64,000 nucleotides of DNA from Methanofastidiosum sp. (GCA_039679445.1 JBDKUY010000025.1:12362-76361), one strand, 5' to 3'. Counted from the first letter of the stretch, positions 16,408 through 37,688 are shown. A program made the numbers and translations. Notes: generated by a model not told the origin, from the sequence alone.

Positions 16408-16459
16408 CGGGCCTGGTGGGATTTGAACCCACGATCTCAAGGTCCGAAGCCCTACGCCA
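16408..16459 (-). repeat. att direct repeat (left): 52-nt copy of the 3' portion of tRNA-Arg
   Basis: 49/52 identical to 37616-37667 in the same orientation. Covers the acceptor 3' strand, T-arm, variable loop and anticodon arm. The upstream 5' part is degenerate, so this is not a complete tRNA. Confidence 0.85.
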
Positions 16460-16578
16460 CCTAGTAGGCAATTAATTGTTAAATGTTAAGTATATAAGTA
16501 TTTTGTTTATTGATTTGTATATACTAAGATTTTGTTGTTTTAAATTCTTTTACACTTTATTCAAATGTTCTTTACTAT

Positions 16579-18015
16579 TTAATCAATCATGTCATTTTCT
16601 TTTAATTGTGGAAGATCTGGATATGTAATAGGCATTCCAACTAGTTTAGAAGCCAATGATTTTCTTAATTCATCTGTAAGATTCATTTTCTCAGACAAAT
16701 CCTTAGGGCATGATGATCGCTCTAATCCAGTTCCCCTATCAATAATATTTAATAAAAAATAAGGTGTAGTAGCTTTAACATTTTGCCTATGACGTAGACA
16801 AGAAGGTATATCCTTTCGGATATCCTTTAAAGAAGAGATTAATCCCATAACTAAAGATGGAGTAATAGATGCACCTACTATATATCCTGCTGCAACACCA
16901 AGTCCACCCCAAATAGTATTTTCTACTATTTTTTTCAACAAAGTGTTATTTATTGAATTTAACTCTTTCTGGCATTTGTCGAGATTTTCATTTAGATTAT
17001 CCAACCAAGTTGATGGCTCTAAATCCCCACTAAATAATCCTTTGCCTTCATTCCATTCTTTTCTGAAATTTATGAATGATGTCAATTCGTTCGAGCGAAA
17101 TTCAAGAAATTTTTCTTCTTTCACTTTGCCCAATAAAGGTATTTTTTTAATAGAGATTTTATTTTCACAATTTTTTTGATATATATGCTCGTTTTTTCTT
17201 TTTAGAAATTCAAAAGTTAGGGCTTCGTTAGTAGTGATTGTTGCAGATAGTAATTCGGATAAAAATATATTTTTATTAATTTTATTAGCAACTGCGCATG
17301 AATTATTATGAATCTCTAGATTTACCCAGTTTTGTATTTCCTCGTCTGGTATGTCTTCTATATTATTAGGGATTATTCCCCTATGAATCATTTTTCCATT
17401 ATCTTCAATTTGAACTAATTTTGAGAAAGGAGAATACATATGAATAGGTTCATAATCTAAATCACCTATTTGCATGGCAAGAATATTCGAGTCTTTATAT
17501 ACTTTCCACTTTATTCTCGATTCAATATACTTTAATGATTCATTTTCAATCCAATCTTTTTCTAATTCATATTTTAAACTAATATTAAAAAAAGATAAAA
17601 TAAAATTGCTCGGTATCAACTCAATAAGATTTTCTCGGAATAATGGCTCCACATCAAATACTATTTTTAGGCTTGATTTTAGATTTTCTAAGAATACTTT
17701 AAGATTATTTTTATAGTGGGGTGGTGTAAATAGAGTAGCATCTATTGGATCTTGAATAACTTGTTTATCATTATATAGCGAATTATTAACGATAATGTTT
17801 GCATTAATGTAAGGTGAACCAGAAGTTGGAATTACTGGCAAATCATTGCTATACCAAAAGTATTCAAACAGTGAACTTTTATTATGAATTGAAGACCAAT
17901 CTTCAAGAAATTTATCTAAAGTATCTGAATCAAAATTATCAATGATTGTCTTATAATTATCACGTGTTATTTCCCATTTCATTAAAAAAATAAGAAATTC
18001 ATTTCCTTGCATCAA
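16579..18015 (-). CDS. Orphan 478-aa protein with one C-terminal-proximal TM segment (element cargo)
   Basis: Long ORF, hydrophobic stretch IWGGLGVAAGYIVGASITPSLVMGLISSL. No motif recognised. Confidence 0.5.
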   Translation of the reverse strand: MMQGNEFLIFLMKWEITRDNYKTIIDNFDSDTLDKFLEDWSSIHNKSSLFEYFWYSNDLPVIPTSGSPYINANIIVNNSLYNDKQVIQDPIDATLFTPPHYKNNLKVFLENLKSSLKIVFDVEPLFRENLIELIPSNFILSFFNISLKYELEKDWIENESLKYIESRIKWKVYKDSNILAMQIGDLDYEPIHMYSPFSKLVQIEDNGKMIHRGIIPNNIEDIPDEEIQNWVNLEIHNNSCAVANKINKNIFLSELLSATITTNEALTFEFLKRKNEHIYQKNCENKISIKKIPLLGKVKEEKFLEFRSNELTSFINFRKEWNEGKGLFSGDLEPSTWLDNLNENLDKCQKELNSINNTLLKKIVENTIWGGLGVAAGYIVGASITPSLVMGLISSLKDIRKDIPSCLRHRQNVKATTPYFLLNIIDRGTGLERSSCPKDLSEKMNLTDELRKSLASKLVGMPITYPDLPQLKENDMID

Positions 18016-18052
18016 TGCTAAATGACATTTTTCATTTTTATATTTATCTAAT

Positions 18053-19384
18053 GTGAATAGGATTAGAAATAAAAAGATTTATTATGTTAAATACATATTT
18101 AGCACTATGATTGATTGGATGTCTCTTTTCTTAGGAGGCTTAATAGGTGGCATAATATCGACTTTTTTCTCCATTATTTATATCAGAGACAAAGAAAAGA
18201 AAGAAGAGAAAACTAAGAAGGAAATTATCCATAAATTATTAGAAAGTGCTAATAACTTAACAAATCTAGATAGATTTGAAGATTCAAAACCAATCTATAA
18301 TGAATTACTAACAATGGTTTCGGCTAAAAAATATCCCCTCATATATCCAGAAATTAAGTATTGCCAAGGCAATTGTTTTAGAGGAATTGGAAAAACAACT
18401 CAAGATATTAATGCATTTTTTACTGCAATTAATTACTATTATGAATCAGCCGATTTGTATAAGAAAAATGACAAATATTTGGAATATTCTTGGTGTAAGA
18501 ATAATCTAGGCGCTACATACTCTTCACTAGCTGAATTTAAAGGAATACTTGAATACTTTGATAAAGCTATAGAATCTTACAATGACGCTTTGGAAATCAG
18601 AACACGAGACAAATATCCAGAGTATTATGCAAAAACTAAGATGAATATAGGGAATATATATCTAAAATTATCAAAAATTAAAGAGAATAAAAAACAAGAA
18701 ATAGAATATGCAATTAGTCAGTATTCAGAAGCGCTAGAAACTTATGAGAATTTAAAAAATAATAAAGGAATTGCTTCAATAAAACAATATTTGGGAGTAT
18801 GTTATAAAGATTTATTTGATGTAGATGGCAAAAAAGACAATCTTCTAAAATCTATAATATATTTTAGTAATGCACTAGAAATAATAACAATACCAGACTA
18901 CCCAAAAGATTACGCTAATGCCCAAGATTCGTTAGGCAATACTTATAAAAAACTATCTTCATATGAAAATAAAGAAATTAATCTAAATAAAGCTATATCA
19001 TGCTATAAAAAATCTTTAGAAGTGGTAGAAAAAAAATCTCCGGATCATGCTAGAGTTTTAGGCAATCTTGGAAGTGTATATAGATTATACTTTGAAGTTA
19101 ATGATAGCAAGAAATGTCTGGAACAATCAATTAAATATTATAATAAATCATTAGAAATATATCTACCAAATAAGTATCCTTTTGAATACGCTAGGATAAG
19201 AAAGAATATGGGCAATGCTTATAGAGATTTATCTAGAATCTCTGATAAAAAGCATAATCTAAAACTTGCAATTGAGTGTTATGAATCTGCCCAAGATATC
19301 TATAAAGACAAGTATATAGATTTATATAATGAAGTAAGTAACTATCTAAGAGAAATTAATGAAGAAATTTTATCTGGGCAATAG
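18053..19384 (+). CDS. TM-anchored tetratricopeptide-repeat protein (element cargo)
   Basis: N-terminal TM (MSLFLGGLIGGIISTFFSIIYI) followed by about 8 repeats of A-x-x-Y-x-x-A-L-E-I...YP-x-x-YA-x-x-x-x-N-x-G-N-x-Y. The start may be the ATG at 18107. Confidence 0.75.
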   Translation: MNRIRNKKIYYVKYIFSTMIDWMSLFLGGLIGGIISTFFSIIYIRDKEKKEEKTKKEIIHKLLESANNLTNLDRFEDSKPIYNELLTMVSAKKYPLIYPEIKYCQGNCFRGIGKTTQDINAFFTAINYYYESADLYKKNDKYLEYSWCKNNLGATYSSLAEFKGILEYFDKAIESYNDALEIRTRDKYPEYYAKTKMNIGNIYLKLSKIKENKKQEIEYAISQYSEALETYENLKNNKGIASIKQYLGVCYKDLFDVDGKKDNLLKSIIYFSNALEIITIPDYPKDYANAQDSLGNTYKKLSSYENKEINLNKAISCYKKSLEVVEKKSPDHARVLGNLGSVYRLYFEVNDSKKCLEQSIKYYNKSLEIYLPNKYPFEYARIRKNMGNAYRDLSRISDKKHNLKLAIECYESAQDIYKDKYIDLYNEVSNYLREINEEILSGQ

Positions 19385-19548
19385 TTTATTGAATTTATTT
19401 TTATTATTTAAGTTTGCCACTATTATCAAATAGTTTTTTTACCCTTGTTCGATCCATCTCTGATTTATAGCTTTTATGATAAATCTCAATAAAATACAGA
19501 GTTAGAGTATCTTTATCATACATATAAATTATTCTAATTAAATTATAT

Positions 19549-21033
19549 TTAAACCGCCACCATTGATAGTTTATATCCAAAGAACAGTAGGAACAAAAAT
19601 ATTAATCCGCAGAATATAACTAACTCCGGCCTTCTTTTCCATACTCCAATTAGCCCGCCTATTAGTATAAATACCCAAGTTGGTATCCCGTATTTATCAT
19701 TGAAGTTAAATAAATTTCTAAATAATACATTTTGCAGATCTCCGGTATATTGCCCATCCACGCTAATTATAGGAGTATCATCTGTTAAATCTGGATATAC
19801 GGGATTAGAGGGAGTTCCTGGATCTCCTGGATCTACGACAGGAGGAGTAACTACCGGAGGATCATAATAATAGACTTTTACTTGATAGTAATATCCATCA
19901 AAATAGCATTTATAGGTATATACAGATTTATAAATTAATGATACTTTTAATACTCCATCTTCATTAATATACGTCTCAAAATTATTACCAATCTCTAAAT
20001 TATGGGTTTTTGGCCCACCCCAATAAGTTCTTTCGTAATACTCTAAATAATTACCCCTGGTATCAACATTTTCATTAATATATCCTGGTGCATTATTATC
20101 ATATATATATGCCTTTAATTCTATATCTTGTGGAGTATATTGATTATAGTATGATAAATTTGCTTTAAACAATATTTCTATTTTCTGTATTTTGCTAACA
20201 TTTTCATCAATTTTAGTTTCAAATCTATACCCCATATATCTTTGAGTATTTGTTGCATCTTCTAATCGGTGATAATTCGCATCATCAGATCCAAAATAAG
20301 TATAAGTAGTATTTGATTCTGAACCATTAAATGTAGGTTGAAAAGATCCTATATCGCCATTATAAAATACATTATTATAAGTATCAACATCTGTTACATT
20401 GGCATAATCATAAATCGTATATTTAATATCAGGATTTCCTTCATTTAATTCATTGGCATATTCAATAATTAATTTTGGCCTAGCTTGGACATAGTAAGTA
20501 GTTTTTTCTTTAGTAGTCCAACGACAATCCCCTGCACTTTTTGAGGCAAAAGAAACATCAGTAATAGAATTATTTAATCTATCAGCTACCCAACTAGTTA
20601 CATCACAATCGGGATAAGTATATCTTATAGTTGTAGGTATTGTTACTATTTCATCCCCGTATAATGGCCTATTGTTATATGTTAAAGTTAATTCATCCCA
20701 ATTATTGGAATCTACCTCATATATTGTTGAGCTTGGATTAACAGGAGTATAATCTGGACTAATCCTTAAATATGCTTTTACTATTTTCGCACTTTCAGGA
20801 ACAGTTGCTAGACTAAATTGGAAATATGCCGTCCTAGTTCCATCGCTCATTATAGGATTAACAGATCCATAATTGGTATTAGGATTATTACTACAAACAT
20901 AGGCATCATCTGAAACATTGATATACAAAAAATTAGTTTTATAATCTGGATCTTCGCATAAAGCTAGAGTAGTATTCATTAATAGCATAGCTACCATTAT
21001 TATACCAAATATTGTTATGTATTTTCTTTTCAA
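19549..21033 (-). CDS. Secreted, C-terminally anchored surface protein with a DNRLRE/CBM96-like N-terminal module
   Basis: Signal peptide. DDAYVCSNNPNTNYG...AYFQFSL...AKIVKAYLRI...NWDELTLTYNNRP. Pro-rich linker PPVVTPPVVDPGDPGTP. C-terminal TM helices. Confidence 0.6.
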   Translation of the reverse strand: MKRKYITIFGIIMVAMLLMNTTLALCEDPDYKTNFLYINVSDDAYVCSNNPNTNYGSVNPIMSDGTRTAYFQFSLATVPESAKIVKAYLRISPDYTPVNPSSTIYEVDSNNWDELTLTYNNRPLYGDEIVTIPTTIRYTYPDCDVTSWVADRLNNSITDVSFASKSAGDCRWTTKEKTTYYVQARPKLIIEYANELNEGNPDIKYTIYDYANVTDVDTYNNVFYNGDIGSFQPTFNGSESNTTYTYFGSDDANYHRLEDATNTQRYMGYRFETKIDENVSKIQKIEILFKANLSYYNQYTPQDIELKAYIYDNNAPGYINENVDTRGNYLEYYERTYWGGPKTHNLEIGNNFETYINEDGVLKVSLIYKSVYTYKCYFDGYYYQVKVYYYDPPVVTPPVVDPGDPGTPSNPVYPDLTDDTPIISVDGQYTGDLQNVLFRNLFNFNDKYGIPTWVFILIGGLIGVWKRRPELVIFCGLIFLFLLFFGYKLSMVAV

Positions 21034-21044: not shown

Positions 21045-22193
21045 CTAAAATGGTTTTTTAAATCCCATAAATGCCCATATTACAAATAATGCGACTAGTC
21101 CTAGGACTATCATATTTGTGTAACTATTAGTTGCGCCAAAATAAAACGAAGGTAGATCAACTTCAGTTGTATCTATTACCGTATAGGCAGTTGCCACCGC
21201 TTTAGAGTTAGTTAACTCTATCATGAAAATAGTTGTTTTCCCACTTGGTATTATCTGGTTTCTAGTTCCAAACGACTTGCTACCCCTGTAAATTTCATCG
21301 CCGTCCTGGTATAAGATATACTGGTTGATAGTTCCGGTTGATTTGTCTATTATATCTACCTGATATTCACTATTTCCAAACGGTTTTAGATTTGCAGAGG
21401 TAATGGAGGCCACCATCCCGAAATCTTCTATTTCCGGGGGAACTGGTATAGTTCCAGTATCGGCAGTTGCATAGGCCGTTGAGTTTCTACCAGAGTTAGA
21501 AACTTCTATCATAAATACTGATATTTGCCCTGGATCAATATATGCCCTTATTGATCTAAATGAACTTGCGCCCTCATAGATTAATTTATCATCCTGGTAA
21601 AGTTTCCAGTATGTTATTTTTCCAGTTGAAAGATCATCTACCAAAACTTCATATACCCCACTTGAAAGAGGGGAGGGTTTAGTTACTACTATTGAGGCTT
21701 GAATAGTGTCGTCATAAACTGGATCCGGTATATCGACTTCATCGGCAATATCTACTGGTGAAGGCAAAAAAGGAGGCTCAATATAATAATCATTATCGTT
21801 TGGTCCAACTTCTATATTATACCTTACTGATCCAGATTCAGTTTTCGGAGTTCTGTAAGATTCATAACCAACATCTTCAGTAAATTGGTATCTTACATCA
21901 AAAACGCAATTTTTAATTATTGCATAATCATAAATCTGTATCTCTGTTTCGGACTGTGGAGGCATCCAATACCATTGGCCTTGTTGCCATATTCGGCCAT
22001 CCTTGTAAATATCTACTTTATAAGACACCGAATATTGGTAAGGATTTACTAATGTATTCCAGATCTCTACATTAGATCCATATTCTACATTTATGGTCCG
22101 GCCGGGTTGATTAAAATTAAATGGCAGATAAGAATTAAAGGCTATTACTCCAACTAATATAATTCCCAATAAAATAAGTATATTTTTATTCAT
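21045..22193 (-). CDS. Secreted, C-terminally anchored protein with an internally duplicated domain of about 90 aa
   Basis: Signal peptide and C-terminal TM. Residues 164-250 and 259-346 share Y-V..D.STG.I..Y.LYQD...IY.G..SF....I.PG....FMIE..NS....TAY. Confidence 0.6.
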   Translation of the reverse strand: MNKNILILLGIILVGVIAFNSYLPFNFNQPGRTINVEYGSNVEIWNTLVNPYQYSVSYKVDIYKDGRIWQQGQWYWMPPQSETEIQIYDYAIIKNCVFDVRYQFTEDVGYESYRTPKTESGSVRYNIEVGPNDNDYYIEPPFLPSPVDIADEVDIPDPVYDDTIQASIVVTKPSPLSSGVYEVLVDDLSTGKITYWKLYQDDKLIYEGASSFRSIRAYIDPGQISVFMIEVSNSGRNSTAYATADTGTIPVPPEIEDFGMVASITSANLKPFGNSEYQVDIIDKSTGTINQYILYQDGDEIYRGSKSFGTRNQIIPSGKTTIFMIELTNSKAVATAYTVIDTTEVDLPSFYFGATNSYTNMIVLGLVALFVIWAFMGFKKPF

Positions 22194-22339: not shown

Positions 22340-22789
22340 ATGAATGAATATATAAAACAATTATTAACAATTTTACTTTTGTCTTTGGTGTTATTTATCT
22401 TAATTTATTTATTCGGTATAAATTCTTTTTTAATTAACGATACTGTTAAATATTATTTTTTATCTGCTATAATCCAGAGTAATTGTGCCTTATTTGGTTT
22501 AATATTAGTAAGTCTTGGCCTTAGAAGAAATGAACAAGAATCGTTCTTTCATCAAAGAGTAACTTTTGTATCGTTTAGTGTAATGTGCTTCTTTATTTGT
22601 ATAATAATTCTATTATCTATATTCTTTATGTTGATAAAAATATCCCCTGCATTAATCATTTTAATAGCGTGTATGGAAAGCGTTACAATCTGGTTAATTT
22701 TTGTGAATATAATTAATCTCATTGACTCTTTTAGCAATAAATCTAAGAAAGAACCGCCTCAAATACACGCAAGTCCAATTAAATTATAA
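22340..22789 (+). CDS. Polytopic membrane protein (4 predicted TM helices)
   Basis: 149 aa, four long hydrophobic segments. Plus-strand gene just downstream of operator copy 1. Confidence 0.5.
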   Translation: MNEYIKQLLTILLLSLVLFILIYLFGINSFLINDTVKYYFLSAIIQSNCALFGLILVSLGLRRNEQESFFHQRVTFVSFSVMCFFICIIILLSIFFMLIKISPALIILIACMESVTIWLIFVNIINLIDSFSNKSKKEPPQIHASPIKL

Positions 22790-22836: not shown

Positions 22837-23304
22837 TTATTTCAAATATCCTTTATCGTATATGAAATACCCGTTATGTTTTCTCTCAAAGTTATAAAGA
22901 AACTCTTTAGTTGAAAAAGGCAGTTTAAATAAATTGTCAATCAATGGAAGTATAAAAATTGATTCCGGTGTTTCTGGTATCCCAGAGCCAACGACTACAA
23001 ATACATCAATATTGTTTTTATCCCTGTAATCCTTGAAGAAGTCCAGTTGGTCCTTCTTGATTAAAAAGTTTTTTTCTTTTATTTCAGATCTAAATTTGCA
23101 CTCTACCGCAAAATTAGTATTGTTGTAATTTGCCCTTATAATGAAGTCCGGCAGATTATCCATTAAAGTCTTGGAATCCTGAAAATGAGAGGTCCGATGG
23201 ACTATGCTATAAATTGGTTCTGGAAAAAGAGTTTGAACATAGGATTGGAATTTATAGCCCATTTCTAAATGAATGTTAAACATTTCTGATTCATTTATCA
23301 TCAA
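22837..23304 (-). CDS. Putative PD-(D/E)xK nuclease-fold protein
   Basis: GYKFQSYVQTLF...LPDFIIRANYNNTNFAVECKFRS gives D...E-x-K spacing like Mrr-cat/Hjc-type nucleases. Confidence 0.4.
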   Translation of the reverse strand: MMINESEMFNIHLEMGYKFQSYVQTLFPEPIYSIVHRTSHFQDSKTLMDNLPDFIIRANYNNTNFAVECKFRSEIKEKNFLIKKDQLDFFKDYRDKNNIDVFVVVGSGIPETPESIFILPLIDNLFKLPFSTKEFLYNFERKHNGYFIYDKGYLK

Positions 23305-23340: not shown

Positions 23341-24252
23341 TTATTTGTAGATTTTTGGATTAGCCCAATATATTTGGAAGTCCACAGTTTCATCCCAGTT
23401 AGATCTTCTTAGTTTTATTGTGCTAGTAAATTCGCTATTATCTGGGTTAATAGTTCCGCTCTGAAGGCCTAATAGGGAACTGTTCTTTAAGAGCATATTT
23501 AGTTGAATTTCATAAGTTTGTAGGGAATTATCGTCCGGGAGGCCTAATTGACACCCGTAAGACTGTTCGGCCATCCTGGTATCAATCCAGAATATTACAG
23601 GATAAGCAGTAACTCCATTATGAGTAATTGGATAAGGCCTTGTTGGAGTTAAAGGATCTCCTAATGCAACAGTAGTTGCACTATCGCTTGGATTTATCCT
23701 AAAGAAATAATAGCCGTCATTTACAACTACTTTTCCTACTCCAAGAGAAGTATCTATTGGTGAGCCACTAAATCCAGGATCCAATACAAACTGGTCACTA
23801 GTCATCCATGGCCTTTCATATACCCTCTTATTGTATGGGTATGTTATTTTAGTTGCATAGTAAGAAAAATCAATGTAGTCTATACTGTATTCTGAAATCG
23901 GTTTCTCAAAGTCAGCAAAAGCCAAAAAGCCGAATCCTATTAATTCGTTTCCATTTTCATCATAGATTTGAAAAGATTTGTTAAATATGCCGTCCTGGGA
24001 ACTACCAAGTAGTTCATGAGTTCCATCTGAATATATGCCGAATACAAATTGATTTACCGATCCCACCGTCATGGCATTTGAAACTATAAAGAGCATGAAT
24101 ATAGTTGCTATGGCTATTGCGCCAAGGCCGTATATACTGGCTAGTTTTACTCCGAATTTATATAGGATAAATGCAAATATGGCCACCGCTACTACCACTA
24201 TAAGTAAAGCAGTATTTCCCAATTGCCCCACTCCCGAAAGTATTGATAACAT
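23341..24252 (-). CDS. Membrane-anchored protein (two N-terminal TM helices, large ectodomain)
   Basis: 303 aa. N-terminal hydrophobic helices followed by a beta-rich, aromatic-rich domain. No motif recognised. Confidence 0.5.
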   Translation of the reverse strand: MLSILSGVGQLGNTALLIVVVAVAIFAFILYKFGVKLASIYGLGAIAIATIFMLFIVSNAMTVGSVNQFVFGIYSDGTHELLGSSQDGIFNKSFQIYDENGNELIGFGFLAFADFEKPISEYSIDYIDFSYYATKITYPYNKRVYERPWMTSDQFVLDPGFSGSPIDTSLGVGKVVVNDGYYFFRINPSDSATTVALGDPLTPTRPYPITHNGVTAYPVIFWIDTRMAEQSYGCQLGLPDDNSLQTYEIQLNMLLKNSSLLGLQSGTINPDNSEFTSTIKLRRSNWDETVDFQIYWANPKIYK

Positions 24253-29302: not shown

Positions 29303-29977
29303 TTAATATCTCCCCTGATTATAGTTCTGATAGTTTTTTTCCTCAATGGCCAGTTGTTTGTCCTTTTCAATTTGTTGTTTTTCCCTGGGTGTTGAGGGGA
29401 TTAGAGGTTTTGGCCTTGGAGTTTTATTGGAACTATTAGACATTGGCCTAAGTGATATTATTATTGCGAATATGCCGAGGCATAGAGAGATCACACCGAG
29501 ATAAAGGGAATACTTGTAATTTAGATCATCTATTCTAACGGTAGTATCGGCTAGATTCTTTATTCCGTTGGAAAGTGTGTTATAGTTCCTGGCAAGATTT
29601 TTTACAGAGGTATTTAGATCACTTATTGAGTTTGAGGTTATGTCCGGAGGACTTCCGCCCATCTCTTTTTTTAATCCTGTAATTGCATTGTTAAGTTCCG
29701 CTACTGTTACAAATCCGCTTAGGTCCGTTTCATCTGAATTGGAAGATTTTAATAGAGTTTCAAGATTATTTACTTTATTTTCAAGGACTTTTAATCTCTG
29801 GTCAAATGTATTGCTAAATGCTTCAGTTCCGCTTGATTTAATATCCGATAGATCATAGGAAACGGACATTATATTTCCGCCCATTGATAGTTCTATTGTA
29901 TAGACCTGTCCTATATATCCCTCTTTTTCAATTAGATCGGTTGGTATTTCATTAGAAGTCATTATTACTCTGGTCAT
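29303..29977 (-). CDS. Coiled-coil protein with C-terminal TM anchor
   Basis: Heptad-like N/L/S-rich central region, TM helix LYLGVISLCLGIFAIIISL, basic tail. 4-nt overlap with the upstream gene. Confidence 0.5.
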   Translation of the reverse strand: MTRVIMTSNEIPTDLIEKEGYIGQVYTIELSMGGNIMSVSYDLSDIKSSGTEAFSNTFDQRLKVLENKVNNLETLLKSSNSDETDLSGFVTVAELNNAITGLKKEMGGSPPDITSNSISDLNTSVKNLARNYNTLSNGIKNLADTTVRIDDLNYKYSLYLGVISLCLGIFAIIISLRPMSNSSNKTPRPKPLIPSTPREKQQIEKDKQLAIEEKNYQNYNQGRY

Positions 29978-30525
29978 CCCCCCGAATCGGTAGTATATTC
30001 TGATTTAATGCTTAATCGTTCTTTTACGAGGTTAGGCATAGCACCATATGTAATTTTTAAATCAGATCTAGGGCCGTAATGTATGAAACTAGCTTGCGAT
30101 TTATACCTTAATTCCCCAAAGCCAGTATCCCAGTAGGTATTAGGATTTACTGGTCCAGAAGCTGAAGAATTATTTACATCCATAAGTCTTGTATGGGTAT
30201 GTAAAATTGTATTATCAGTTGCAGTTACCTTTATCACATATTGACCGTTTTGCACATTGGAAGTTTGCCAGTAAATAGAGTATTCCGAATTTTTATCGGT
30301 TGATTCATTGATTAAACTAAAGTCCACACCGTTAGCCGAATATTCATATATGCATTTTACACTAGAATTACCCGTATAAGTTACCGTAGATTTCAGTTCC
30401 ACAAATCCAGTTGCAGTTGCCGGGGAAGTCAAGATTACATTAATAGTATTTGCGGATAATAAGGGAATCAATAAAAGCATTAAGCCGATAGCCAGGATTA
30501 TAGATTTTTTCATAATAATATCCAC
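29974..30525 (-). CDS. Secreted protein with Ig-like beta-sandwich character
   Basis: Signal peptide (KKSIILAIGLMLLLIPLLSA), then alternating beta-pattern VELKSTVTYTGNSSVKCIYEYS...GQYVIKVTATD. Confidence 0.5.
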   Translation of the reverse strand: MDIIMKKSIILAIGLMLLLIPLLSANTINVILTSPATATGFVELKSTVTYTGNSSVKCIYEYSANGVDFSLINESTDKNSEYSIYWQTSNVQNGQYVIKVTATDNTILHTHTRLMDVNNSSASGPVNPNTYWDTGFGELRYKSQASFIHYGPRSDLKITYGAMPNLVKERLSIKSEYTTDSGG

Positions 30526-30843
30526 TTCCCTAATTCCCTTGCGACTGGTCGGCCGTCATTTAAAATTCCTTTGTCCTCTACCCCTTTTCTGTAAGTTATT
30601 GTAAATTGGCCATAAATTGGAATCAGTTCATTATTTTCAGGAATTTGTTGGAAAATTCTATCGGTTCCCGTTTTTGCATATTTTTTTCTCATTTCTAGCA
30701 CCTGGGAATTTAATATCTCTCTCTTTCAAGAATTGCAATCTACTCTGTAAGGACATGTTGCAGAATCTAGCAAAATCATCTTCATTTTCAAAGATGGATT
30801 CTTTCACGATAAGCTTCTTTCTGGATTTTTTCATAATGATCAA
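30510..30843 (-). pseudogene. Small protein ORF split at a T7/A7 homopolymer (30681-30687)
   Basis: ORFs 30658-30843 and 30510-30701 fuse into about 112 aa (...FPGARNEKKYAKTGTDRIFQQ...) if the A7 run on the coding strand is read as A6. Confidence 0.45.
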
Positions 30844-30960
30844 GAGCAGATTTCACTAAAAATAAAAAACACTCTCTAGGCCTATACTTGTTAAATAATG
30901 TCTCGAATAGAATATCTACTTTAGAGGTATCTTCAGGCAAGAGAGAGGTATCCATTTAAA

Positions 30961-31215
30961 TCAGTTCCAGCCACCGTGGGATAGTCCATTTAGCAAGCCA
31001 CCGGAAATGAGAAGTCCGATAGCAATAATGCAAACACCAGTAATGTTAATGTAGGTCATAGGTAGATAAGATACATTGGCAATTGCCATGAATAGCATAA
31101 GTGTAAAGCAACCGCCACCCCCGACCATAAAAAACGCACCGAGTATGGCTAGGGCAAATCTTATACCTTTTAGTTCCAATAGACTATTTATTTTAAATAG
31201 AGTATTTTTGGACAT
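30961..31215 (-). CDS. 84-aa protein with two hydrophobic helices (candidate spindle-virus-type major capsid protein)
   Basis: Short polar N-terminus, then ALAILGAFFMVGGGGCFTLMLFMAIANV, a short loop, and GVCIIAIGLLISGGLLNGL. This architecture resembles SSV1 VP1-like capsid proteins. Architecture only, no sequence match was tested. Confidence 0.4.
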   Translation of the reverse strand: MSKNTLFKINSLLELKGIRFALAILGAFFMVGGGGCFTLMLFMAIANVSYLPMTYINITGVCIIAIGLLISGGLLNGLSHGGWN

Positions 31216-31219: not shown

Positions 31220-31927
31220 TCAGTTCTCTTTTTTGTTAAACTCTGTTTTGTCCTTGAATCCCTGTCTTGGTGCGTATTCGGGTTTATCGGCAAGTATCTT
31301 TTTAGCTTCATCTGGATTTGCTTTTATCCAATCTTCTCTTAGAGTTAGTTTCCTTGTTTTTACAGTTCCTATAATTTTCATGTCCACTATGTCTTTGCTA
31401 CTAGCTTTCCACTCCGGATACTCCGGGTTAAAGTTTTCCTCTTTCTTGTATGCGGATAGTTCAATTTCTACTGATTCGCCGTTTTTCCTTGCCATGACTA
31501 TTTGAGTTTCCAGTTTGTCAATTAATTTCTGGTAAGTTTCCCCATTGGGATCAAACACAGAGAAATAGATAGGTTCTTTTGTCTTATCGTTTAAGACATC
31601 AATAATATTGCCGTCCTTGTCAAACTGTTTCTTTTTTAGCCTAATCTCTGAATCGCCGTAAACTTGAATTTCGGCTTTTACCGGCGCGTCATTAAACATG
31701 TTACTTGGCTTTTTGTCAGGATCTTCAACTGAAATTCTAAGCATTGAGTAAAGCCTTTCGTCAGGTGAGCTATTCATCATTTTCTTTAATTCAGGGTAGA
31801 AGTCCAGGACTTCTTGTTTTGTTACAAAATCTTTATTGTATTGGTCATTTTTATAGCCAATACTTTTTACTATTGTTTTAAAAACATTTCTTGCTTTTTT
31901 CCTTTTCATTGAATAATTCAATGGCAT
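31220..31927 (-). CDS. Charged K/E-rich 235-aa protein, unknown function
   Basis: First gene of the minus-strand operon that ends with the NTPase. No motif recognised. Confidence 0.5.
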   Translation of the reverse strand: MPLNYSMKRKKARNVFKTIVKSIGYKNDQYNKDFVTKQEVLDFYPELKKMMNSSPDERLYSMLRISVEDPDKKPSNMFNDAPVKAEIQVYGDSEIRLKKKQFDKDGNIIDVLNDKTKEPIYFSVFDPNGETYQKLIDKLETQIVMARKNGESVEIELSAYKKEENFNPEYPEWKASSKDIVDMKIIGTVKTRKLTLREDWIKANPDEAKKILADKPEYAPRQGFKDKTEFNKKEN

Positions 31928-32163: not shown

Positions 32164-32502
32164 TCATAATAAGTTATCCCCTAGAATATCCCCAAGGAAT
32201 CCATAAACTGAAAATAGTAAATCAGAATTATCGCTACTAAAGGTATGTATATTATCTGCATTTCCACAGATATCGACACTGAAAAGACGTATTAGTCCAA
32301 TCTTACCTTGACAGATACCAAATAATACTATAAAGCCCTTTTCTTCTTCAAGTAACTCTGGATATCTACTAGGATCTTTTAACCAATAATAGTATTCTCC
32401 ATCAATACATCTTCTATTTTTTGGAATCCACTCATTTAGAGAATTTAAATCTATTTCTTCTTTAGTATTGTCCCAGTCAATAATAATGCTATTAAGTTTC
32501 AT
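32164..32502 (-). CDS. Hypothetical protein
   Basis: 112-aa acidic ORF standing alone between operons. Confidence 0.4.
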   Translation of the reverse strand: MKLNSIIIDWDNTKEEIDLNSLNEWIPKNRRCIDGEYYYWLKDPSRYPELLEEEKGFIVLFGICQGKIGLIRLFSVDICGNADNIHTFSSDNSDLLFSVYGFLGDILGDNLL

Positions 32503-32999: not shown

Positions 33000-33788
33000 A
33001 TGCAAGATCTAAGAAATGATAAGATTAAAGAAAGTTTAAGAAATGTAGTAGAGGCCTTTAAAACTGGTGAAGTTCCGGAGGCCATTAGAATAGTTATGTT
33101 TCCTAGATCTGAAATGCCATCAAATAAATGGAGTTTATGCAATCGGTTAATAATGTTTTTCAATGGAACAGAGGACGCCAGGGGATTTAAACAATGGAAC
33201 AGCCAAGAAAGATGGGTAAAGAAAGGAAGCAGAGCATTTTATATTCTAGGTCCAAAGATGGCCAAGATCCATGAAGAAGATGGAACAGAAAATATAATAT
33301 TGAAAGGTTTTATTTCAATTCCAGTTTTTAGAGCAGAAGATACAGAGGGTAAGCCATTAGAAAAGCCAGATCTAAAACTACCAGAATTAAGATTATTAAA
33401 TGTTGCAGAAAAATGGGGAATTGATGTTAAACCAATAGAAGGTAACGACATATGTAATGGCTATTTTATGCCAAATCAGAATAAGATCCGATTAGCTACC
33501 CCCGAAGAAAAAGTATTTTTCCATGAATTAGCCCACGCAGGCCATAATTTAATACTAAATTCCCATGGCAAAAAATTAAAGGGTGGCCAAGATCCAAGAC
33601 AAGAGATAACAGCAGAGTTAACAGCTTCGGTTTTATCTGAATATTTCGGTATAAGATCCACTCTGGGGAACAGCTACGATTATATCAAATCGTATGCAGA
33701 TGAACAAAGTAAATCTGTAGAACTAGCAGTTTTAGAAGTATTAACGGACGTAGAGAAGATATTAAATTTAATAATGGAAGAAAATTAA
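33000..33788 (+). CDS. ArdC-like protein (N-terminal ssDNA-binding-like domain plus HExxH metalloprotease domain)
   Basis: N-terminus NKWSLCNRLIMFFNGTEDARGFKQWNSQERWVKKGSRAFYILGP resembles the ArdC-N/DUF1738 pattern. C-terminal FFHELAHAGH zinc-protease motif. Confidence 0.6.
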   Translation: MQDLRNDKIKESLRNVVEAFKTGEVPEAIRIVMFPRSEMPSNKWSLCNRLIMFFNGTEDARGFKQWNSQERWVKKGSRAFYILGPKMAKIHEEDGTENIILKGFISIPVFRAEDTEGKPLEKPDLKLPELRLLNVAEKWGIDVKPIEGNDICNGYFMPNQNKIRLATPEEKVFFHELAHAGHNLILNSHGKKLKGGQDPRQEITAELTASVLSEYFGIRSTLGNSYDYIKSYADEQSKSVELAVLEVLTDVEKILNLIMEEN

Positions 33789-33824
33789 TTTTTTAATTTT
33801 TTACTACTTTGGCAGGATATAAAA

Positions 33825-34622
33825 ATGGAATTTATTAATCATCTGATCATAAAGAAAGGGATAAGTCCATATCAGGCCAAAGATTACAATTATAAAATTT
33901 TGCAGTTTTTAAGAAAATATCAAGACACTAAAGAAAATATGGAAGAATTTTATATTGATTATCTCAAAGGTGATTATTCAAAGTCCACAATAAGAAATGT
34001 TGCTTTTGCCCTAAATCATTATGCAGAGTATAAAGGCTATGATCTAAAGATTAAGCCACCTAAAAAAAATATGACCGAAGTTAAATATCTCAATAAGGAA
34101 GATATTATTAATGTTTTAGATCACATGCCAAATTACAGGGAAACAGCGATTTTTTTATTAATGGTCCAGGCAGGTTTAAGGATCAATGAAGTATGCAAGT
34201 TGAATATAGAAGATCTTTATCTGAAAGATGATTATATTTTATTGAAGGATACCAAGAATCGTAAGGACTGGAAGGTTTATATTTCTGAAGAAATCAAGAC
34301 GGCAATTTTAGTTTATATTGGCCATGAAAGGCCATCAAGTAATAATAAGGCAGTTTTTATTAATTCTAATAATAGTAGGTTGTCAAATAGATTTATAGAA
34401 AAAAGATTTGAGATTATAAGAGAAAAATCAAATATTTATTTTTATCCACACATGCTAAGGCATACATGCGCTACCCAAATGCGACTGAACGGTGCGGACA
34501 TAGATACAATAAAAAATCAATTAAGACACCTTGATTATAAGTCCACTCAAAGATATATTCATGCTATAAATGAGATCCAGAAGGTCAATTATTTGAAGTA
34601 TTGCCCTAAAATTTTAAAATAG
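33825..34622 (+). CDS. int: Tyrosine recombinase/integrase (XerC/D-like, intact)
   Basis: Catalytic pattern AGLRINE (R), HMLRHT (HxxR), LRH (H), STQRYIH (Y). N-terminal SAM-like core-binding domain. Confidence 0.9.
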   Translation: MEFINHLIIKKGISPYQAKDYNYKILQFLRKYQDTKENMEEFYIDYLKGDYSKSTIRNVAFALNHYAEYKGYDLKIKPPKKNMTEVKYLNKEDIINVLDHMPNYRETAIFLLMVQAGLRINEVCKLNIEDLYLKDDYILLKDTKNRKDWKVYISEEIKTAILVYIGHERPSSNNKAVFINSNNSRLSNRFIEKRFEIIREKSNIYFYPHMLRHTCATQMRLNGADIDTIKNQLRHLDYKSTQRYIHAINEIQKVNYLKYCPKILK

Positions 34623-34661
34623 CTTGAGGGTGTCTAATTATCGGATACTCCCCTTCTAAGA

Positions 34662-34688
34662 GTCAACCGTTCCGGTTGGCCTTTTTTT
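34662..34688 (+). terminator. Hairpin plus T7 tract after the integrase gene
   Basis: gtcaaccg-ttc-cggttggc stem-loop at 34662-34680, followed by ttttttt at 34682-34688. Confidence 0.5.
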
Positions 34689-34992
34689 AAATAATATATT
34701 AGGCCTTCTTTTCCTATTTAGAGGGATTATAGCCCTTCTTTTACAGCTTCATACCGGCTTATATTATTATTACTATTATAATGACTATGACTAAGATATT
34801 GACAATGATAATAAGATCTCTATGCCAGTTTTCCGCTTCGCTTAGGAAAACAGGCCACCGAAATAATTCCTATTGCCTTTTCTTGAAAGAAAAGCTAACA
34901 AAAGAACTTTATTGAAATTATAATTTATTTAAAATTATATTTGATTTTATATAAAAATAGTTTTACCTGGAATACATGATATCATAGAAAAA

Positions 34993-35250
34993 TTATAGAT
35001 TTGGAAGATAGAAATAATGGCCATATAGTTTAAAATAGTTAATCTGATTTGATTTTCTTAGATTCTGAAGATTTCGCCTTATGGTCCTTATTGGCAGGTT
35101 TAGATCTTCTGATATTTGCCCTGGTGTTACAGGAGTATAACAATCCATATTTTTAAGATAATTAACTATATCACATTGGGTAATCTGAATCCCCCCAAAA
35201 ATCATTATCTGATTCTTTGACTTTATCATCATCTTCACACATGGAATCAT
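34993..35250 (-). CDS. Small winged-helix DNA-binding protein
   Basis: IVNYLKNMDCYTPVTPGQISEDLNLPIRTIRRNLQNLRKSNQI is HTH-like. The start is uncertain because it overlaps the upstream Zn-ribbon ORF. Confidence 0.5.
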   Translation of the reverse strand: MIPCVKMMIKSKNQIMIFGGIQITQCDIVNYLKNMDCYTPVTPGQISEDLNLPIRTIRRNLQNLRKSNQINYFKLYGHYFYLPNL

Positions 35251-35356
35251 AATTTAATATAGTTTGGCATTTAGGACATGCGCCATGCATAGTTAATTTT
35301 CCATATATGCCACAAATTGGACATTTACCTTTATTATTAATTTCCAATTTACCCAT
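35171..35356 (-). CDS. Zinc-ribbon protein with acidic tail
   Basis: CPICG-x13-CPKC, then a D/E-rich C-terminus. 8-nt overlap with the upstream 615-aa gene. Confidence 0.5.
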   Translation of the reverse strand: MGKLEINNKGKCPICGIYGKLTMHGACPKCQTILNYDSMCEDDDKVKESDNDFWGDSDYPM

Positions 35357-37196
35357 CTCCCTGTTTTTCTAATAATTTACCTCTCAATCTTTCCACTTTG
35401 TTTAGATAATACTCTATTTTGATTATGATCTGTTCCGGCGTTAGTTCTTTTTCCCACCATCTTAATTCCTCATTAGTAAATGGCAGTAATTCAGGGTAAT
35501 GTTTAGAATATAGAAAGAAGATATTTTTTACTAGGTCAACTATCTTTGGTGCTACATCAAAGTATTGCATATCTCTAAAGTAGGTGCCGTATTCAGGGGA
35601 TAAACAAAAGGTCCGCTTATTGAATCCATAGATATTCCCCCGATCATCCTGGACCACTTCGGTTGATTCGCCCTTTTCTATAAGTCCGAATCTAGCCAAC
35701 ATATTAGTATGATAATTGATGGTAGTCCTGGCAAGAGATAATTCATCCATAAGACTGTAATAGTCCTGGTAGTTTGAAGATCCTAGGATTTGCAGAATTT
35801 CCAATCGGACAGGTGAGAAGAACATTTGCCCGACTTTTCTTAATGATTCATTTAGAGCTCTAAGTTCTGATTTTATGGCCTTGTATTTTTCCGTTTTAGT
35901 CAAGTTCATTTTTTGCAGGTCATTTAAAATATCCTGTTTACGCCTTAAATCCCTAAAAAGTTCAGATTCTTTTGCAAAGTCCGGCAGATCATAGGAAAAA
36001 TGAGAGATCCTAATATCGCTAGTAAGATCTCTCTTAAAAAAATCCAGAAAATCCGATAGCATGGAGGAAACGCTAAAGGATTCTGGTGAAACTAACCCAT
36101 AGGAGGCATATTCCGGCATTAAGTCTTTTATGGAATCTTGGTTTAGATGATCTTCATTTTTATGTAATAACGCCACAAATTGATCATATAGAAAAGAATT
36201 TTCTTTATTGAAATATTCATCATTGTCCTGGACAATAAAATCCCTACTCATGATTTCCGCACAAATCAGGAAGAAAGTTAATAAACATTGATAGAATCTT
36301 AAAGCCCTTAAAGTATCAGTTTCACTATTCATTATTATTTTTACTTCTACTTTAGGGTGATAACCCAATTCGTTCTTTTTTGTTTGCCTAAATTCCTTTG
36401 GAAAATAAACTTTTAGGCTTATTGAATTTCCTATATCCACTCCTAGTTTTTCGCTAAATTCTTTTAATGAAAAGTTACCACGAAATAGAGAATTAAATTT
36501 ATCTCTATTATAATGCCTCATTATAGTTGAATCAATTTGGATAGATTTATCGGAATAACAGGATAATGTATAAAAAAATGAATCTAAAGAGGCCATCAAT
36601 GCCGGAGTTTTTAATCTGTTAATTCTAACATATTTTTCGGTGAAAGATATATATTCTTTAACCCTTGAAAGGTCAATATCTCTAGTTCCTATTTTTAATT
36701 TAGAAATAAAATTATAAAAAATTTCTTTAGTTTTTTGAGAATCGTGCTTTAAAGCACCGCTTTTAGGCCAAACTTGAAATGTTGTAGTTCCTTTTCCTAT
36801 ATGGACATTTATACTAATCCCTTTATCATTATTCCAATCAGGATAAACTTTTATGAAAAGTTTATCAGGAATAAGTTTATAGCCATCATCCGTTTTTTTG
36901 CTCTTTATCCACATTAGTCTTTTTGATTCAAGATCATTCTTATTGCCACTCCAAGAACAACTATACCCTATAATAAATCCGTTCCAGTCAAATTTAAATT
37001 CTGGTGTTCTAGTTTTTTTCTGATAATATGGACTATTGCTTTTGGCATTTGTTTTATTCTTGTAATTATCCCACTCCTGGAGTTTTTTTACTTCTTTGAA
37101 CATGGCACTAGTTAAGGCCATGTAAATAGCATCAGAATCAAACTTGAAAGTATAGCTTAACGCATGTTGTATGGGCAATGGTGAAACATGGACCAA
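35349..37196 (-). CDS. 615-aa orphan protein with C-terminal ArsR-like wHTH (candidate replication or regulatory protein)
   Basis: RLEILQILGSSNYQDYYSLMDELSLARTTINYHTNMLARFGLIEKG is wHTH-like. No Walker, HUH or primase motifs seen in the N-terminal 450 aa. Confidence 0.55.
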   Translation of the reverse strand: MVHVSPLPIQHALSYTFKFDSDAIYMALTSAMFKEVKKLQEWDNYKNKTNAKSNSPYYQKKTRTPEFKFDWNGFIIGYSCSWSGNKNDLESKRLMWIKSKKTDDGYKLIPDKLFIKVYPDWNNDKGISINVHIGKGTTTFQVWPKSGALKHDSQKTKEIFYNFISKLKIGTRDIDLSRVKEYISFTEKYVRINRLKTPALMASLDSFFYTLSCYSDKSIQIDSTIMRHYNRDKFNSLFRGNFSLKEFSEKLGVDIGNSISLKVYFPKEFRQTKKNELGYHPKVEVKIIMNSETDTLRALRFYQCLLTFFLICAEIMSRDFIVQDNDEYFNKENSFLYDQFVALLHKNEDHLNQDSIKDLMPEYASYGLVSPESFSVSSMLSDFLDFFKRDLTSDIRISHFSYDLPDFAKESELFRDLRRKQDILNDLQKMNLTKTEKYKAIKSELRALNESLRKVGQMFFSPVRLEILQILGSSNYQDYYSLMDELSLARTTINYHTNMLARFGLIEKGESTEVVQDDRGNIYGFNKRTFCLSPEYGTYFRDMQYFDVAPKIVDLVKNIFFLYSKHYPELLPFTNEELRWWEKELTPEQIIIKIEYYLNKVERLRGKLLEKQGDG

Positions 37197-37256
37197 GTTC
37201 TCTATATCGTTAATAAATTCCTTGGTGATGGCTATTTGATTAGTTATATAGACACC

Positions 37257-37568
37257 TTAGAATTTAGGATCTCTCTCAATAATGTTTTTTACATTATCCA
37301 ATCTTTCAGAATTGCCGTTATTTTTGGTCCAAATTTCCGGAGGATATTCTTTAAGGCATAGATCAATAAGATCATCGAGGGGAAGATCTGAATGAATAGG
37401 CCAGATTTTAGCCATATCAAATCTAGTTTGTGCCAAAATACCTCTTTTTGAAAGTGAATCGTTGGGATCAATCCCGTATCTTTTTAAACTCTCTAAAATT
37501 TCCTGGTCCGAAAAGGACATTTTCTTTAATTTTCTAGAATTTTCTTTATTTATGGAGTTTCCAATCAT
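37257..37568 (-). CDS. Hypothetical protein (last element gene before the tRNA)
   Basis: 103-aa ORF. No motif recognised. Confidence 0.4.
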   Translation of the reverse strand: MIGNSINKENSRKLKKMSFSDQEILESLKRYGIDPNDSLSKRGILAQTRFDMAKIWPIHSDLPLDDLIDLCLKEYPPEIWTKNNGNSERLDNVKNIIERDPKF

Positions 37569-37615
37569 TTTATTACCTGATTTTTTACTCCACTAGATAG
37601 AGAATAGGGAAATAG

Positions 37616-37667
37616 CGGGCCTGATGGGATTTGAACCCACGATCTCAGGGTCCGAAGCCCTGCGCCA
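37616..37667 (-). repeat. att direct repeat (right), inside the intact tRNA-Arg
   Basis: 49/52 identity with 16408-16459. Confidence 0.85.
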
Positions 37668-37688
37668 TATCCACTAGACTACAGGCCC
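37616..37688 (-). tRNA. tRNA-Arg (anticodon UCG)
   Basis: Hand-folded cloverleaf: acceptor GGGCCTG/CAGGCCC, anticodon stem CAGGG/CCCTG with loop CTTCGGA, T-arm GTGGG-TTCAAAT-CCCAT, discriminator G, no encoded CCA. Confidence 0.85.

Follow-up and report, generated by a model that had tools for sequence, protein, structure and literature searches.

A mobile element integrated at tRNA-Arg(UCG) of Candidatus Methanofastidiosum with a predicted rolling-circle initiator and a putative virion-export module

Rolling-circle initiators of the Rep-Arvir family, whose catalytic domain DUF7845 was characterised in 2026, are distantly related to Rep_trans and essential in the temperate pleolipovirus SNJ2, and they are carried by PAV1, by lemon-shaped haloviruses and by the plasmids pRT1 and pAMT11, plasmids and integrative and conjugative elements (ICEs) being counted among the carriers; initiators related to Rep_trans occur also in inoviruses (PMC13107129). 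Pleolipovirus-like proviruses, ranging from 7 to 17 kb, are known in other archaea (AvPV1), including other methanogens, the Thermococcales spindle viruses have two transmembrane (TM)-anchored lectin-domain proteins among their core genes, and for Methanosarcinaceae there is a report of putative archaeal inoviruses (Roux et al. 2019). For the integrative plasmids of the pT26-2 family, which is reported to be absent from Methanofastidiosa, a function in DNA/protein transfer has been proposed in the literature. Here, we analysed a stretch of 64,000 nucleotides from Methanofastidiosum sp. (GCA_039679445.1 JBDKUY010000025.1:12362-76361), in the following called the window, for which an integrated virus-like element of about 21 kb at the 3' end of a tRNA-Arg(UCG) gene, having no recognisable capsid, packaging or replication genes, had been predicted from the sequence alone (the original prediction). 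Methanofastidiosum is a widespread, uncultured methyl-reducing methanogen of digesters and sediments, and no virus or plasmid of it is described in the literature that could be searched. We show the element to be mobile and site-specifically integrated, and our data suggest, with a probability of about 0.55, that it is an integrative rolling-circle element exporting its DNA as a non-lytic, membrane-derived virion and representing a new virus family.

The integration itself is firmly established. ARAGORN finds a single tRNA in the whole window, an intact tRNA-Arg (anticodon tcg) at 37615-37688 on the minus strand (37616-37688 with 66 bits in Rfam), of which the 3' 52 nt (37615-37666) recur at 16407-16458 with 3 mismatches, a match that none of 100 dinucleotide shuffles reproduces. 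By one further matching base the repeat grows to 53 nt (16407-16459 and 37615-37667, 50/53 identical) constituting the attachment (att) core, which at the tRNA-proximal junction is the 3' part of the intact gene and at the distal junction a displaced fragment on the minus strand. Rfam detects no second tRNA-like match within 14000-40000, and the fragment at 16407-16459 is a displaced piece and no independent tRNA pseudogene because its 5' half is absent in both ARAGORN and Rfam. The interior between the repeats comprises 21,155 bp (16460-37614) with 28 open reading frames (ORFs), 89% coding sequence and seven stop/start overlaps, and it begins with a non-coding left end (16460-16578) containing two 21-nt direct repeats, both ending in TATATA. 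Both flanks are chromosomal, encoding FtsZ, Cgi121 and a 5TM-LytS protein on the left and two PhoU/TrkA_C proteins and a DUF373 protein on the right, the latter showing 82-97% identity to proteins of Candidatus Methanofastidiosum metagenome-assembled genomes (MAGs). The element encodes a 265-aa tyrosine recombinase as integrase (33825-34622, plus strand; PF00589, 3e-33), in which all catalytic residues are present, i.e. R119, H209-x-x-R212, H235 and Y244, and the gene of which is uninterrupted by integration.

In four related Methanofastidiosum genomes (L003, L006, L007, L012) the site is empty: the sequence at window position ~37615 joins straight to 16459, the LytS-like gene follows directly after the tRNA and the boundaries fall exactly at the repeat, the flanks of L003 being 95% identical to those of the window. 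Other samples contain at least six sibling elements integrated at this tRNA, adjoining the same PhoU/TrkA_C pair. Three of these (L017, L018, L019) have a replication protein (Rep) 69% identical to the window Rep and an intact tRNA at the equivalent junction; in L033 and L034 the element DNA is 81-89% identical to the window, both encoding the same Rep (P0174), which belongs to the 90%-identity cluster of the window Rep; and a further sibling is split in one MAG over the contigs L010 and L013 with the break at the tRNA, L013 representing the left end of the element, adjoined by an att fragment identical in kind. Rep identity among the siblings at this tRNA ranges from 69 to 98%, and several further MAG contigs terminate at the same position. 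Empty sites and siblings at the same tRNA therefore establish a real mobile integrative element, inserted site-specifically at the 3' end of tRNA-Arg(UCG) and duplicating 53 nt. As far as found here, the family is restricted to Candidatus Methanofastidiosum, and judging by the presence/absence polymorphism and the several variants at one tRNA it appears to be active.

These results bear out the original prediction in its view of an element integrated by a tRNA-targeting tyrosine recombinase, which is supported by the empty sites, the repeat and the integrase. The tRNA-Arg(UCG) and its 3' repeat are real according to ARAGORN, Rfam and the shuffles, with coordinates correct to within 1 nt, the approximately 27 tightly packed ORFs correspond to the 28 counted here, about 14 proteins with hydrophobic segments stand beside the at least 12 expected to have signal peptides or TM helices, and the assignment of the flanks as chromosomal (LytS-like on the left, PhoU/TrkA-C on the right) agrees with the family matches. 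Likewise, Pfam and PHROGs confirm the tyrosine recombinase, ArdC-like, Zot-like NTPase, winged helix-turn-helix (wHTH) and Zn-ribbon genes. The empty site with the tRNA followed by the LytS-like gene, for which a search in relatives had been proposed, was found in the four genomes, and none of the three findings named in advance as contrary to the prediction, i.e. chromosomal synteny without the repeat, an independent tRNA pseudogene or mostly housekeeping ORFs, was obtained.

The anticodon stem and the 3' end of the tRNA-Arg differ between lysogens and empty sites, a difference to be expected when the tRNA 3' part is contributed by each element. The stem reads CAGGG/CCCTG in the window, CAGGG/CCCGG with an A/G mismatch and an encoded CCA in L017 (3543-3618), and TCGGG/CCCGA in L003 (12328-12402). 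Immediately 3' of the tRNA in L003, ~12 nt resemble the arm of the element, possibly being the scar of an earlier excision. The 5TM-LytS gene (15880-16389) beside the att fragment is variable as well, L008, L009 and L011 joining the tRNA to window position ~15600 without it.

On its sequence, the 615-aa protein encoded at 35349-37196 on the minus strand is a Rep-Arvir/DUF7845 rolling-circle initiator, so that the statement of the original prediction that replication genes are absent is refuted. The sibling proteins P0009 and P0010, 69% identical to the window Rep, match DUF7845 (PF25227) with 28.0 and 27.5 bits, above the cut-off of 27, and in our own Pfam check the domain is strong in PAV1 ORF528 (2.6e-55) and HRPV-3 ORF9. 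The window protein has an ArsR-type wHTH (HTH_5 at residues 461-508, E 1e-3), which is shared by the siblings, and the domain order of DUF7845, wHTH and a variable C-terminus agrees with the published description of Rep-Arvir. In the alignment, K-V-Y264 of the window protein lies opposite K-H-Y-Y of HRPV-3 and K-I-Y of PAV1, E284 is placed 20 residues past Y264, a spacing equal to that of Y283/E303 in SNJ2, and E187 is invariant. Y264 is a candidate for the catalytic tyrosine, and E284 is a further candidate catalytic residue. Searching phage and plasmid collections with the Rep by tblastn returned spurious HTH matches only. The 90%-identity cluster of the window Rep comprises 18 members, including NMC76190.1, which GenBank labels as 'helix-turn-helix transcriptional regulator' only, and the identification as Rep corrects this routine naming.

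The rep operon starts with a conserved 103-aa ORF (37257-37568, minus strand), 46 nt from the att core, and has as its distal genes those for a wHTH protein and a Zn-ribbon protein (34993-35356, minus strand), both recognised by family matches and conserved in siblings. Downstream of this operon lies a non-coding region of 370 bp (34623-34992) being 80% identical to the siblings, compared to 51-69% for the proteins of the rep operon and 78% for the integrase, which adjoins the region on the opposite side. It contains hairpins and three AAAGAAGGCC-type repeats. The hairpin at 34824-34855 has a conserved loop, (T/A)AAGCGAAGC, and a stem in which pairing is kept through a G-C / C-G exchange, with a DNA folding energy of -8.9 kcal/mol (z = -3.0), and a second hairpin at ~34660-34675 reads CAACCG-GAA-CGGTTG in the window and, fully compensated, TAGTCC-GAA-GGACTA in L017. 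In SNJ2 the origin downstream of rep consists of an inverted repeat and a conserved hairpin in a bind-site/nick-site layout (PMC13107129), and by analogy the region at 34623-34992 is a plausible candidate for the replication origin.

A further gene encodes a 314-aa Zot-like NTPase of the FtsK/HerA superfamily (26896-27840, minus strand) with Walker A (GGRGSGKT) at residue 86 and Walker B (IIIQDE) at residue 142, in which no TM or hydrophobic segment was found. It matches Pfam Zot (PF05707) with 26.0 bits (cut-off 20.3), and in a profile search against the PDB the Zot N-terminal domain (2r2a, 3.9e-9) is the top sequence match. The AlphaFold2 model, built from an alignment of 59 relatives (pLDDT 88.6), has as its best Foldseek match in the PDB the genome-packaging NTPase B204 of STIV2 (4e-7, TMt about 0.6), ahead of the Zot N-terminal domain and then of HerA, EssC and TcpA, and in BFVD it matches inovirus Zot proteins, A32-like packaging ATPases and archaeal AMDV proteins. 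Within the family, the Zot PHROG is matched by 41/59 members and phrog_1979 by 28/59, the latter being the pleolipovirus NTPase family, matched by HRPV-1 VP8, HRPV-3 ORF5 and His2 ORF33 at 1e-97 or better; the window protein matches phrog_1979 with 5e-4 (family best 1.4e-8; hhalign probability 80%), the Zot PHROG scoring better. Given the B204 and Zot structures and the matches to both PHROGs, the protein is, as judged from model and profiles, a virus-type morphogenesis/packaging enzyme at superfamily level standing between the Zot and the pleolipovirus groups. The original prediction had seen no packaging genes, which is refuted by the FtsK/HerA fold of viral packaging/morphogenesis NTPases in this protein. 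As to a jelly-roll major capsid protein beside an A32/B204-like packaging ATPase, as in icosahedral viruses of the PRD1/STIV or sphaerolipovirus type, no soluble neighbour of the NTPase having the size of such a protein shows a family or PDB match at the sequence level.

An exhaustive HMMER search yielded 858 relatives of the NTPase, 444 of them at E <= 1e-10, and a metagenome scan with the NTPase alignment returned one 2.5-kb contig only. Four distant relatives with 27-34% identity (L028-L031; Logan ERR4450751/57, GCA_041692815.1, GCA_041694085.1) lie on contigs of 12-23 kb, in which the cassette of a two-TM protein and the NTPase is kept, the 275-aa two-TM protein of the window matching the 232-aa protein of L030 with 4.9e-7. 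Also encoded with the NTPase on these contigs are Rce1-like proteases and large Laminin_G_3 lectin proteins, and hairpin proteins of 49-81 aa occur among them, L028 and L030 encoding small two-helix membrane proteins. L028 has a resolvase in place of the tyrosine integrase, and no host genes were seen on any of the four contigs.

Comparison with the siblings L013, L014, L017-L019, L033 and L034 separates core from cargo genes, the core block being kept and the cargo varying. On the minus strand the core begins with a charged 235-aa protein (31220-31927), the first gene of the long operon, followed by two small soluble ORFs of 63 and 55 aa (30510-30955), the spike-like gene (29303-30525), a soluble 165-aa protein without family match (28805-29302), the 275-aa two-TM protein and a 50-aa ORF (27845-28821) and the NTPase. 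It continues with a 238-aa protein having N-terminal TM helices and then a domain without TM or family match (25245-25961), a 173-aa Rce1-like (CPBP) intramembrane protease (24514-25035; PF02517, 4e-9), a small membrane protein of 79 aa, by TM prediction (24278-24517), a 303-aa protein with two N-terminal TM helices preceding a domain without TM, family or PDB match (23341-24252), a 155-aa protein with weak matches to TnsA-N / VRR-NUC (PD-(D/E)xK nuclease-like; 22837-23304), a 382-aa surface protein with signal peptide, two internal repeats and C-terminal TM anchor (21045-22193), the L014 orthologue of which carries TSP_3 repeats, and a 494-aa CBM96/DNRLRE protein (19549-21033; PF24517, 1e-19; PDB 8wab, 3.7e-6). 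The latter has a signal peptide and C-terminal TM helices, is conserved in L013 and L014 and is a candidate for an adhesin or receptor-binding protein. The window element has two TM-anchored surface proteins, one with CBM96 and one with repeats, for neither of which similarity to ConA1/ConA2 was detected. PDB sequence searches of the 303-, 382- and 235-aa proteins gave nothing convincing, the NCBIfam scan of the element proteins gave no match and PADLOC a generic TPR match only.

The product of the spike-like gene combines a signal peptide with an Ig-like domain, heptad repeats and a TM anchor. Five siblings (L017, L018, L019, L033, L034) have the gene as one uninterrupted ORF of 403-407 aa, and in the window it is split into ORFs of 183 aa (29974-30525) and 224 aa (29303-29977) with an ATGA stop/start overlap, caused by the loss of 1 nt beside a G6 run at ~29975-29985. 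Either the frameshift is real and inactivates the gene, in which case the window copy may be defective, or the homopolymer was misassembled. The heptad-repeat region of the L017 protein (11279-12502, residues 254-344) has weak PDB matches to HR1/HR2 of coronavirus spike S2 (E 0.01-0.03). We reject homology to S2, the matches probably reflecting coiled-coil composition, though the layout is fusion-protein-like.

According to the reading we favour, the integrase would act on attP, which contains the tRNA 3' part, and on the chromosomal tRNA gene, and after recombination the element DNA would complete a functional tRNA. The excised circle would replicate by the rolling-circle mechanism, Rep-Arvir nicking via Y264 at the conserved hairpins that follow the rep/Zn-ribbon/wHTH operon, and ArdC may shield incoming DNA from restriction. 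The long minus-strand operon (31927 down to 19549) would then build an apparatus exporting the element DNA, composed of the two-TM/NTPase cassette, the Rce1-like protease and at least six membrane-anchored or secreted proteins, with the lectin-type adhesin and the heptad-repeat spike-like protein at the surface. Export as a virion is favoured because the nearest structures and PHROGs of the NTPase are viral, because Rep-Arvir is common to pleomorphic and spindle viruses and because the module shares with archaeal enveloped/spindle viruses the presence of lectin adhesins and of a membrane-anchored spike-like protein with heptad repeats. Most likely, the logic of the virion would be pleolipovirus-like with unrelated structural proteins, as far as can be read from the genes alone. 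More tentatively, and with the odds somewhat against it, the element might represent the first virus family of the class Methanofastidiosia, having a capsid/fusogen unlike those described and lying inside a much larger group, that of the 858 NTPase relatives with the two-TM/NTPase cassette, Rce1-like protease and lectin adhesins, which would stand between the inovirus pI/Zot and the pleolipovirus modules and was not found in IMG/VR.

Several observations weigh against the favoured reading. Searches with Pfam, PHROGs, NCBIfam, PDB sequences and hhalign detected no homologue of a capsid protein, VP3, VP4 or a hairpin coat, the original prediction being right in recognising no capsid as far as sequence and profile methods reach, and the only two-helix hairpin protein of the window element (84 aa) is missing from the siblings. 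The window Rep itself scores 23.5 bits against DUF7845 (E 4e-5) with the cut-off being 27, and hhalign of the Rep family with the single sequences of PAV1 ORF528 and HRPV-3 ORF9 is not significant, because the profiles are shallow. The region 34623-34992 is assigned its function by analogy with SNJ2 only. In scans for close relatives, IMG/VR yielded none of NTPase or Rep, whether searched with single proteins, alignments or two distant NTPases. Moreover, TcpA, a conjugation coupling protein, and EssC are among the fold matches of the NTPase, and FtsK/HerA-type ATPases with membrane partners also power conjugative DNA transfer. Finally, the Methanofastidiosum protein MEN6378750.1, whose printed residues agree with the N-terminus of the window Rep, is placed in the class 'IE' (integrative element) and not among proviruses in the supplement of the Rep-Arvir study, which also lists Rep-Arvir in plasmids and ICEs (PMC13107129).

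Many of these points are shared by the main rival, an integrative plasmid transferring itself without a virion, similar to the actinomycete integrative and conjugative elements (AICEs) or as proposed for pT26-2, in which the two-TM/NTPase pair would act as a membrane DNA translocase and the lectin and Ig-like proteins would join donor and recipient cells. The set of modules, i.e. integrase, rolling-circle Rep, an NTPase of FtsK/HerA fold and many membrane proteins, fits this explanation, as do the TcpA and EssC matches, the lack of a capsid gene, the 'IE' context and the absence of the family from IMG/VR. ArdC, recognised here by its PHROG match, is typical of conjugative plasmids. However, VirB4, relaxase and other known conjugation families are absent in Pfam scans of the element proteins, the best structure matches of the NTPase are viral (B204, Zot), its family overlaps the pleolipovirus NTPase PHROG, and an anchored heptad-repeat spike-like protein together with lectin adhesins is typical of enveloped/spindle archaeal viruses. 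Membership in the pT26-2 family, for which the core genes t26-5p, 6p, 7p, 11p, 13p, 14p and 15p served as criterion, is excluded, there being no similarity to any pMEFER01 protein: phmmer with the 28 ORFs as queries and a search with a deep NTPase HMM found no match with E under 0.007 among the 34 pMEFER01 proteins, a small set. A plasmid of this kind is a serious competitor of virion export and nevertheless a rather unlikely one.

Descent from the pleolipovirus lineage (Pleolipoviridae / 'Thalassapleoviridae'-like), with VP3 and VP4 diverged beyond sequence detection, would explain why the replication protein is that of betapleolipoviruses, why the element is temperate and tRNA-integrating like SNJ2 and AvPV1 and why its NTPase reaches phrog_1979, and such proviruses are already known in other methanogens. 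The gene order, too, mirrors that of HRPV-1, i.e. VP4, ORF6 (181 aa), ORF7 (270 aa, the His2 counterpart having two TM helices) and VP8, as well as that of His2 ORF29-33. Set against this, neither PHROGs nor hhalign show any similarity to VP3, VP4, ORF6 or ORF7, ten element protein families having been compared to these four by hhalign without signal. In particular, PHROGs, hhalign and PDB sequence searches found no match to a VP4-like fusogen for the 403/407-, 494- and 382-aa proteins at the sequence level, the 407-aa protein not retrieving HRPV spikes from the PDB, and PHROGs and hhalign found no VP3-like internal membrane protein. The NTPase is somewhat nearer to Zot than to phrog_1979, and with 21 kb the element is outside the range of 7-17 kb. 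We consider direct descent within this lineage unlikely.

Still less probable is a spindle-shaped provirus of PAV1/TPV1 type, built from a hairpin coat protein, in which the lectin proteins would be tail-fibre adhesins. PAV1 encodes a Rep-Arvir protein (ORF528), the host class is sister to Thermococcales, size (18-21 kb) and number of TM proteins are similar, two TM-anchored lectin proteins are core genes of the Thermococcales spindle viruses, and in the distant relatives the Laminin_G_3 proteins, weakly matching PAV1 ORF678, occur together with hairpin proteins of 69-81 aa. The NTPase shows a weak similarity to PAV1 ORF375, which, however, belongs to another PHROG and resembles it in the Walker A region only; hhalign gave no signal for two enlarged element families compared to 11 PAV1 proteins. 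The sole hairpin protein, the 84-aa two-helix membrane protein (30961-31215, minus strand), is present in the window copy only. As a spindle-virus coat it is rejected because the siblings examined, L017-L019 and even L033/L034, lack the gene.

A filamentous element resembling the archaeal inoviruses of Roux et al. 2019 is very improbable. Such an element would account for the Pfam Zot match above cut-off, for the Zot domain as top PDB sequence match and for inovirus pI proteins as best tblastn matches, and both Rep_trans-related initiators in inoviruses and the putative inoviruses of Methanosarcinaceae are in line with it. Yet the tblastn matches in the phage/plasmid collections are weak, with 24-31% identity over 34-57% of the query, i.e. 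at superfamily level only, the NTPase lacks the TM domain of pI, no pVIII-like coat protein was identified, and 21 kb with large multi-domain surface proteins are atypical. An immobile chromosomal island beside a tRNA pseudogene, having nothing but the lack of capsid genes in its favour, is refuted by the presence/absence polymorphism with boundaries exact at the repeat, the intact integrase, siblings with different cargo at the same site and the fragment lacking the tRNA 5' half.

The remaining genes are accessory or cargo. The 262-aa ArdC-like anti-restriction protein (33000-33788, plus strand) contains ArdC-N and a zincin domain with HELAH at residue 175 (phrog_7245, 5e-14). Its gene is missing from L017-L019, and an ORF of the same size is present in L033/L034; the same distribution is seen for a 112-aa ORF (32164-32502, minus strand). 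A different Rep-Arvir element, L020 (Logan SRR12489244; 7175-7933, 10001-11194), with a 397-aa Rep 43% identical to the window Rep, has a 77% identical ArdC gene adjoining a 405-aa integrase, a KAP NTPase and an SMC-like ATPase, and this copy suggests that ArdC is exchanged modularly between elements. The cargo genes have a low GC content (0.24-0.27) and include, at the left end, a 478-aa ORF on the minus strand without family match and a gene for a 443-aa TPR protein on the plus strand (16579-19384, GC 0.27), both absent from L013, and two plus-strand multi-TM genes encoding 149 aa (22340-22789, missing from siblings) and 272 aa (26049-26867, GC 0.24), besides the 84-aa hairpin protein. The position downstream of the NTPase is occupied by the 272-aa multi-TM gene on the opposite strand in the window, by a 439-aa soluble protein in L033 (17316-18635) and by nothing in L013. 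Directly upstream of the NTPase, L017 (13960-15004) and L013 (774-1319) encode a 172-181-aa protein without family match, in L013 with an N-terminal hydrophobic segment, and L017 additionally a 135-aa ORF, both being absent from the window. No CRISPR array is found within the window, and far outside the element a 66-nt tandem repeat is present at 694-817 (1.9 copies, 89% match).

Neither the mechanism of integration nor the Rep family nor the ATPase superfamily is new, and the Rep of this element type is already catalogued as 'IE'. What this analysis adds is an element defined with its boundaries, a family of such elements sharing one tRNA hot spot, a candidate origin and a conserved morphogenesis-like module without known structural homologues, together with the link of this module to a large uncharacterised group defined by the NTPase. 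For an uncultured lineage this gives a concrete replicon, with Rep-Arvir and a candidate origin, and an integration system. Together with the 858 members of its NTPase family, the export module points to a sizeable class of elements in archaea, possibly also in bacteria, that was not found in IMG/VR. Should the element form particles, these would consist of new structural proteins; otherwise, it would represent a new archaeal DNA-transfer system.

Among the described systems, AICEs resemble the element in the logic of their modules. These bacterial elements of 9-24 kb combine a tRNA tyrosine integrase, a rolling-circle Rep, a single FtsK-like translocase and small membrane proteins. They are not known to have homology to the window element beyond the superfamily level or to encode lectin or spike-like surface proteins. 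The pT26-2 plasmids of Thermococcales and Methanococcales differ in that the integrase of the window element is not split by integration and the replication protein is another one, and they resemble it in size (17-38 kb), tRNA integration, an FtsK/HerA-type ATPase, a carbohydrate-binding protein and many TM proteins. Inoviridae, including the archaeal inoviruses (Roux et al. 2019), have genomes two to three times smaller, a TM domain in pI which is missing in the window NTPase and a pVIII-like coat without recognised counterpart here, and do not share the large surface proteins; common to both are rolling-circle replication, chromosomal integration and the pI/Zot relationship seen in the Pfam threshold and in the Zot N-terminal domain as top structure by sequence.

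A further comparison is with PAV1 and the Thermococcales spindle viruses ('Osirisviridae', 'Sethviridae'). The window element has no conserved hairpin coat gene, its lectin domain is CBM96 and not ConA/LamG, its NTPase falls into a different PHROG and protein-level similarity to PAV1 ends at Walker A, whereas Rep-Arvir (PAV1 ORF528), a size of ~18-21 kb, many TM proteins including anchored carbohydrate-binding ones, and a host lineage being the sister group are shared. The pleolipoviruses, in particular the betapleolipoviruses with SNJ2, are likewise among the closest known systems. Judged from sequence, the window element differs in having no detectable homologues of the hallmark proteins VP3 and VP4, in its length of 21 kb compared to 7-17 kb, in six additional conserved membrane/surface genes and the Rce1-like protease, and in its host class Methanofastidiosia. 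In common with SNJ2 it has a Rep-Arvir protein composed of DUF7845 and wHTH with a structured, conserved non-coding region downstream, and with SNJ2 and AvPV1 the integration into a tRNA gene by a tyrosine recombinase. Spike-like proteins with signal peptides and C-terminal anchors, and a P-loop NTPase of the same broad Zot-like group following a two-TM protein of ~270 aa, complete the likeness, the series of spike-like, 165-aa, 275-aa (two TM), 50-aa and NTPase genes mirroring VP4, ORF6, ORF7, (ORF32) and NTPase of HRPV-1 and His2 in both sizes and topology.

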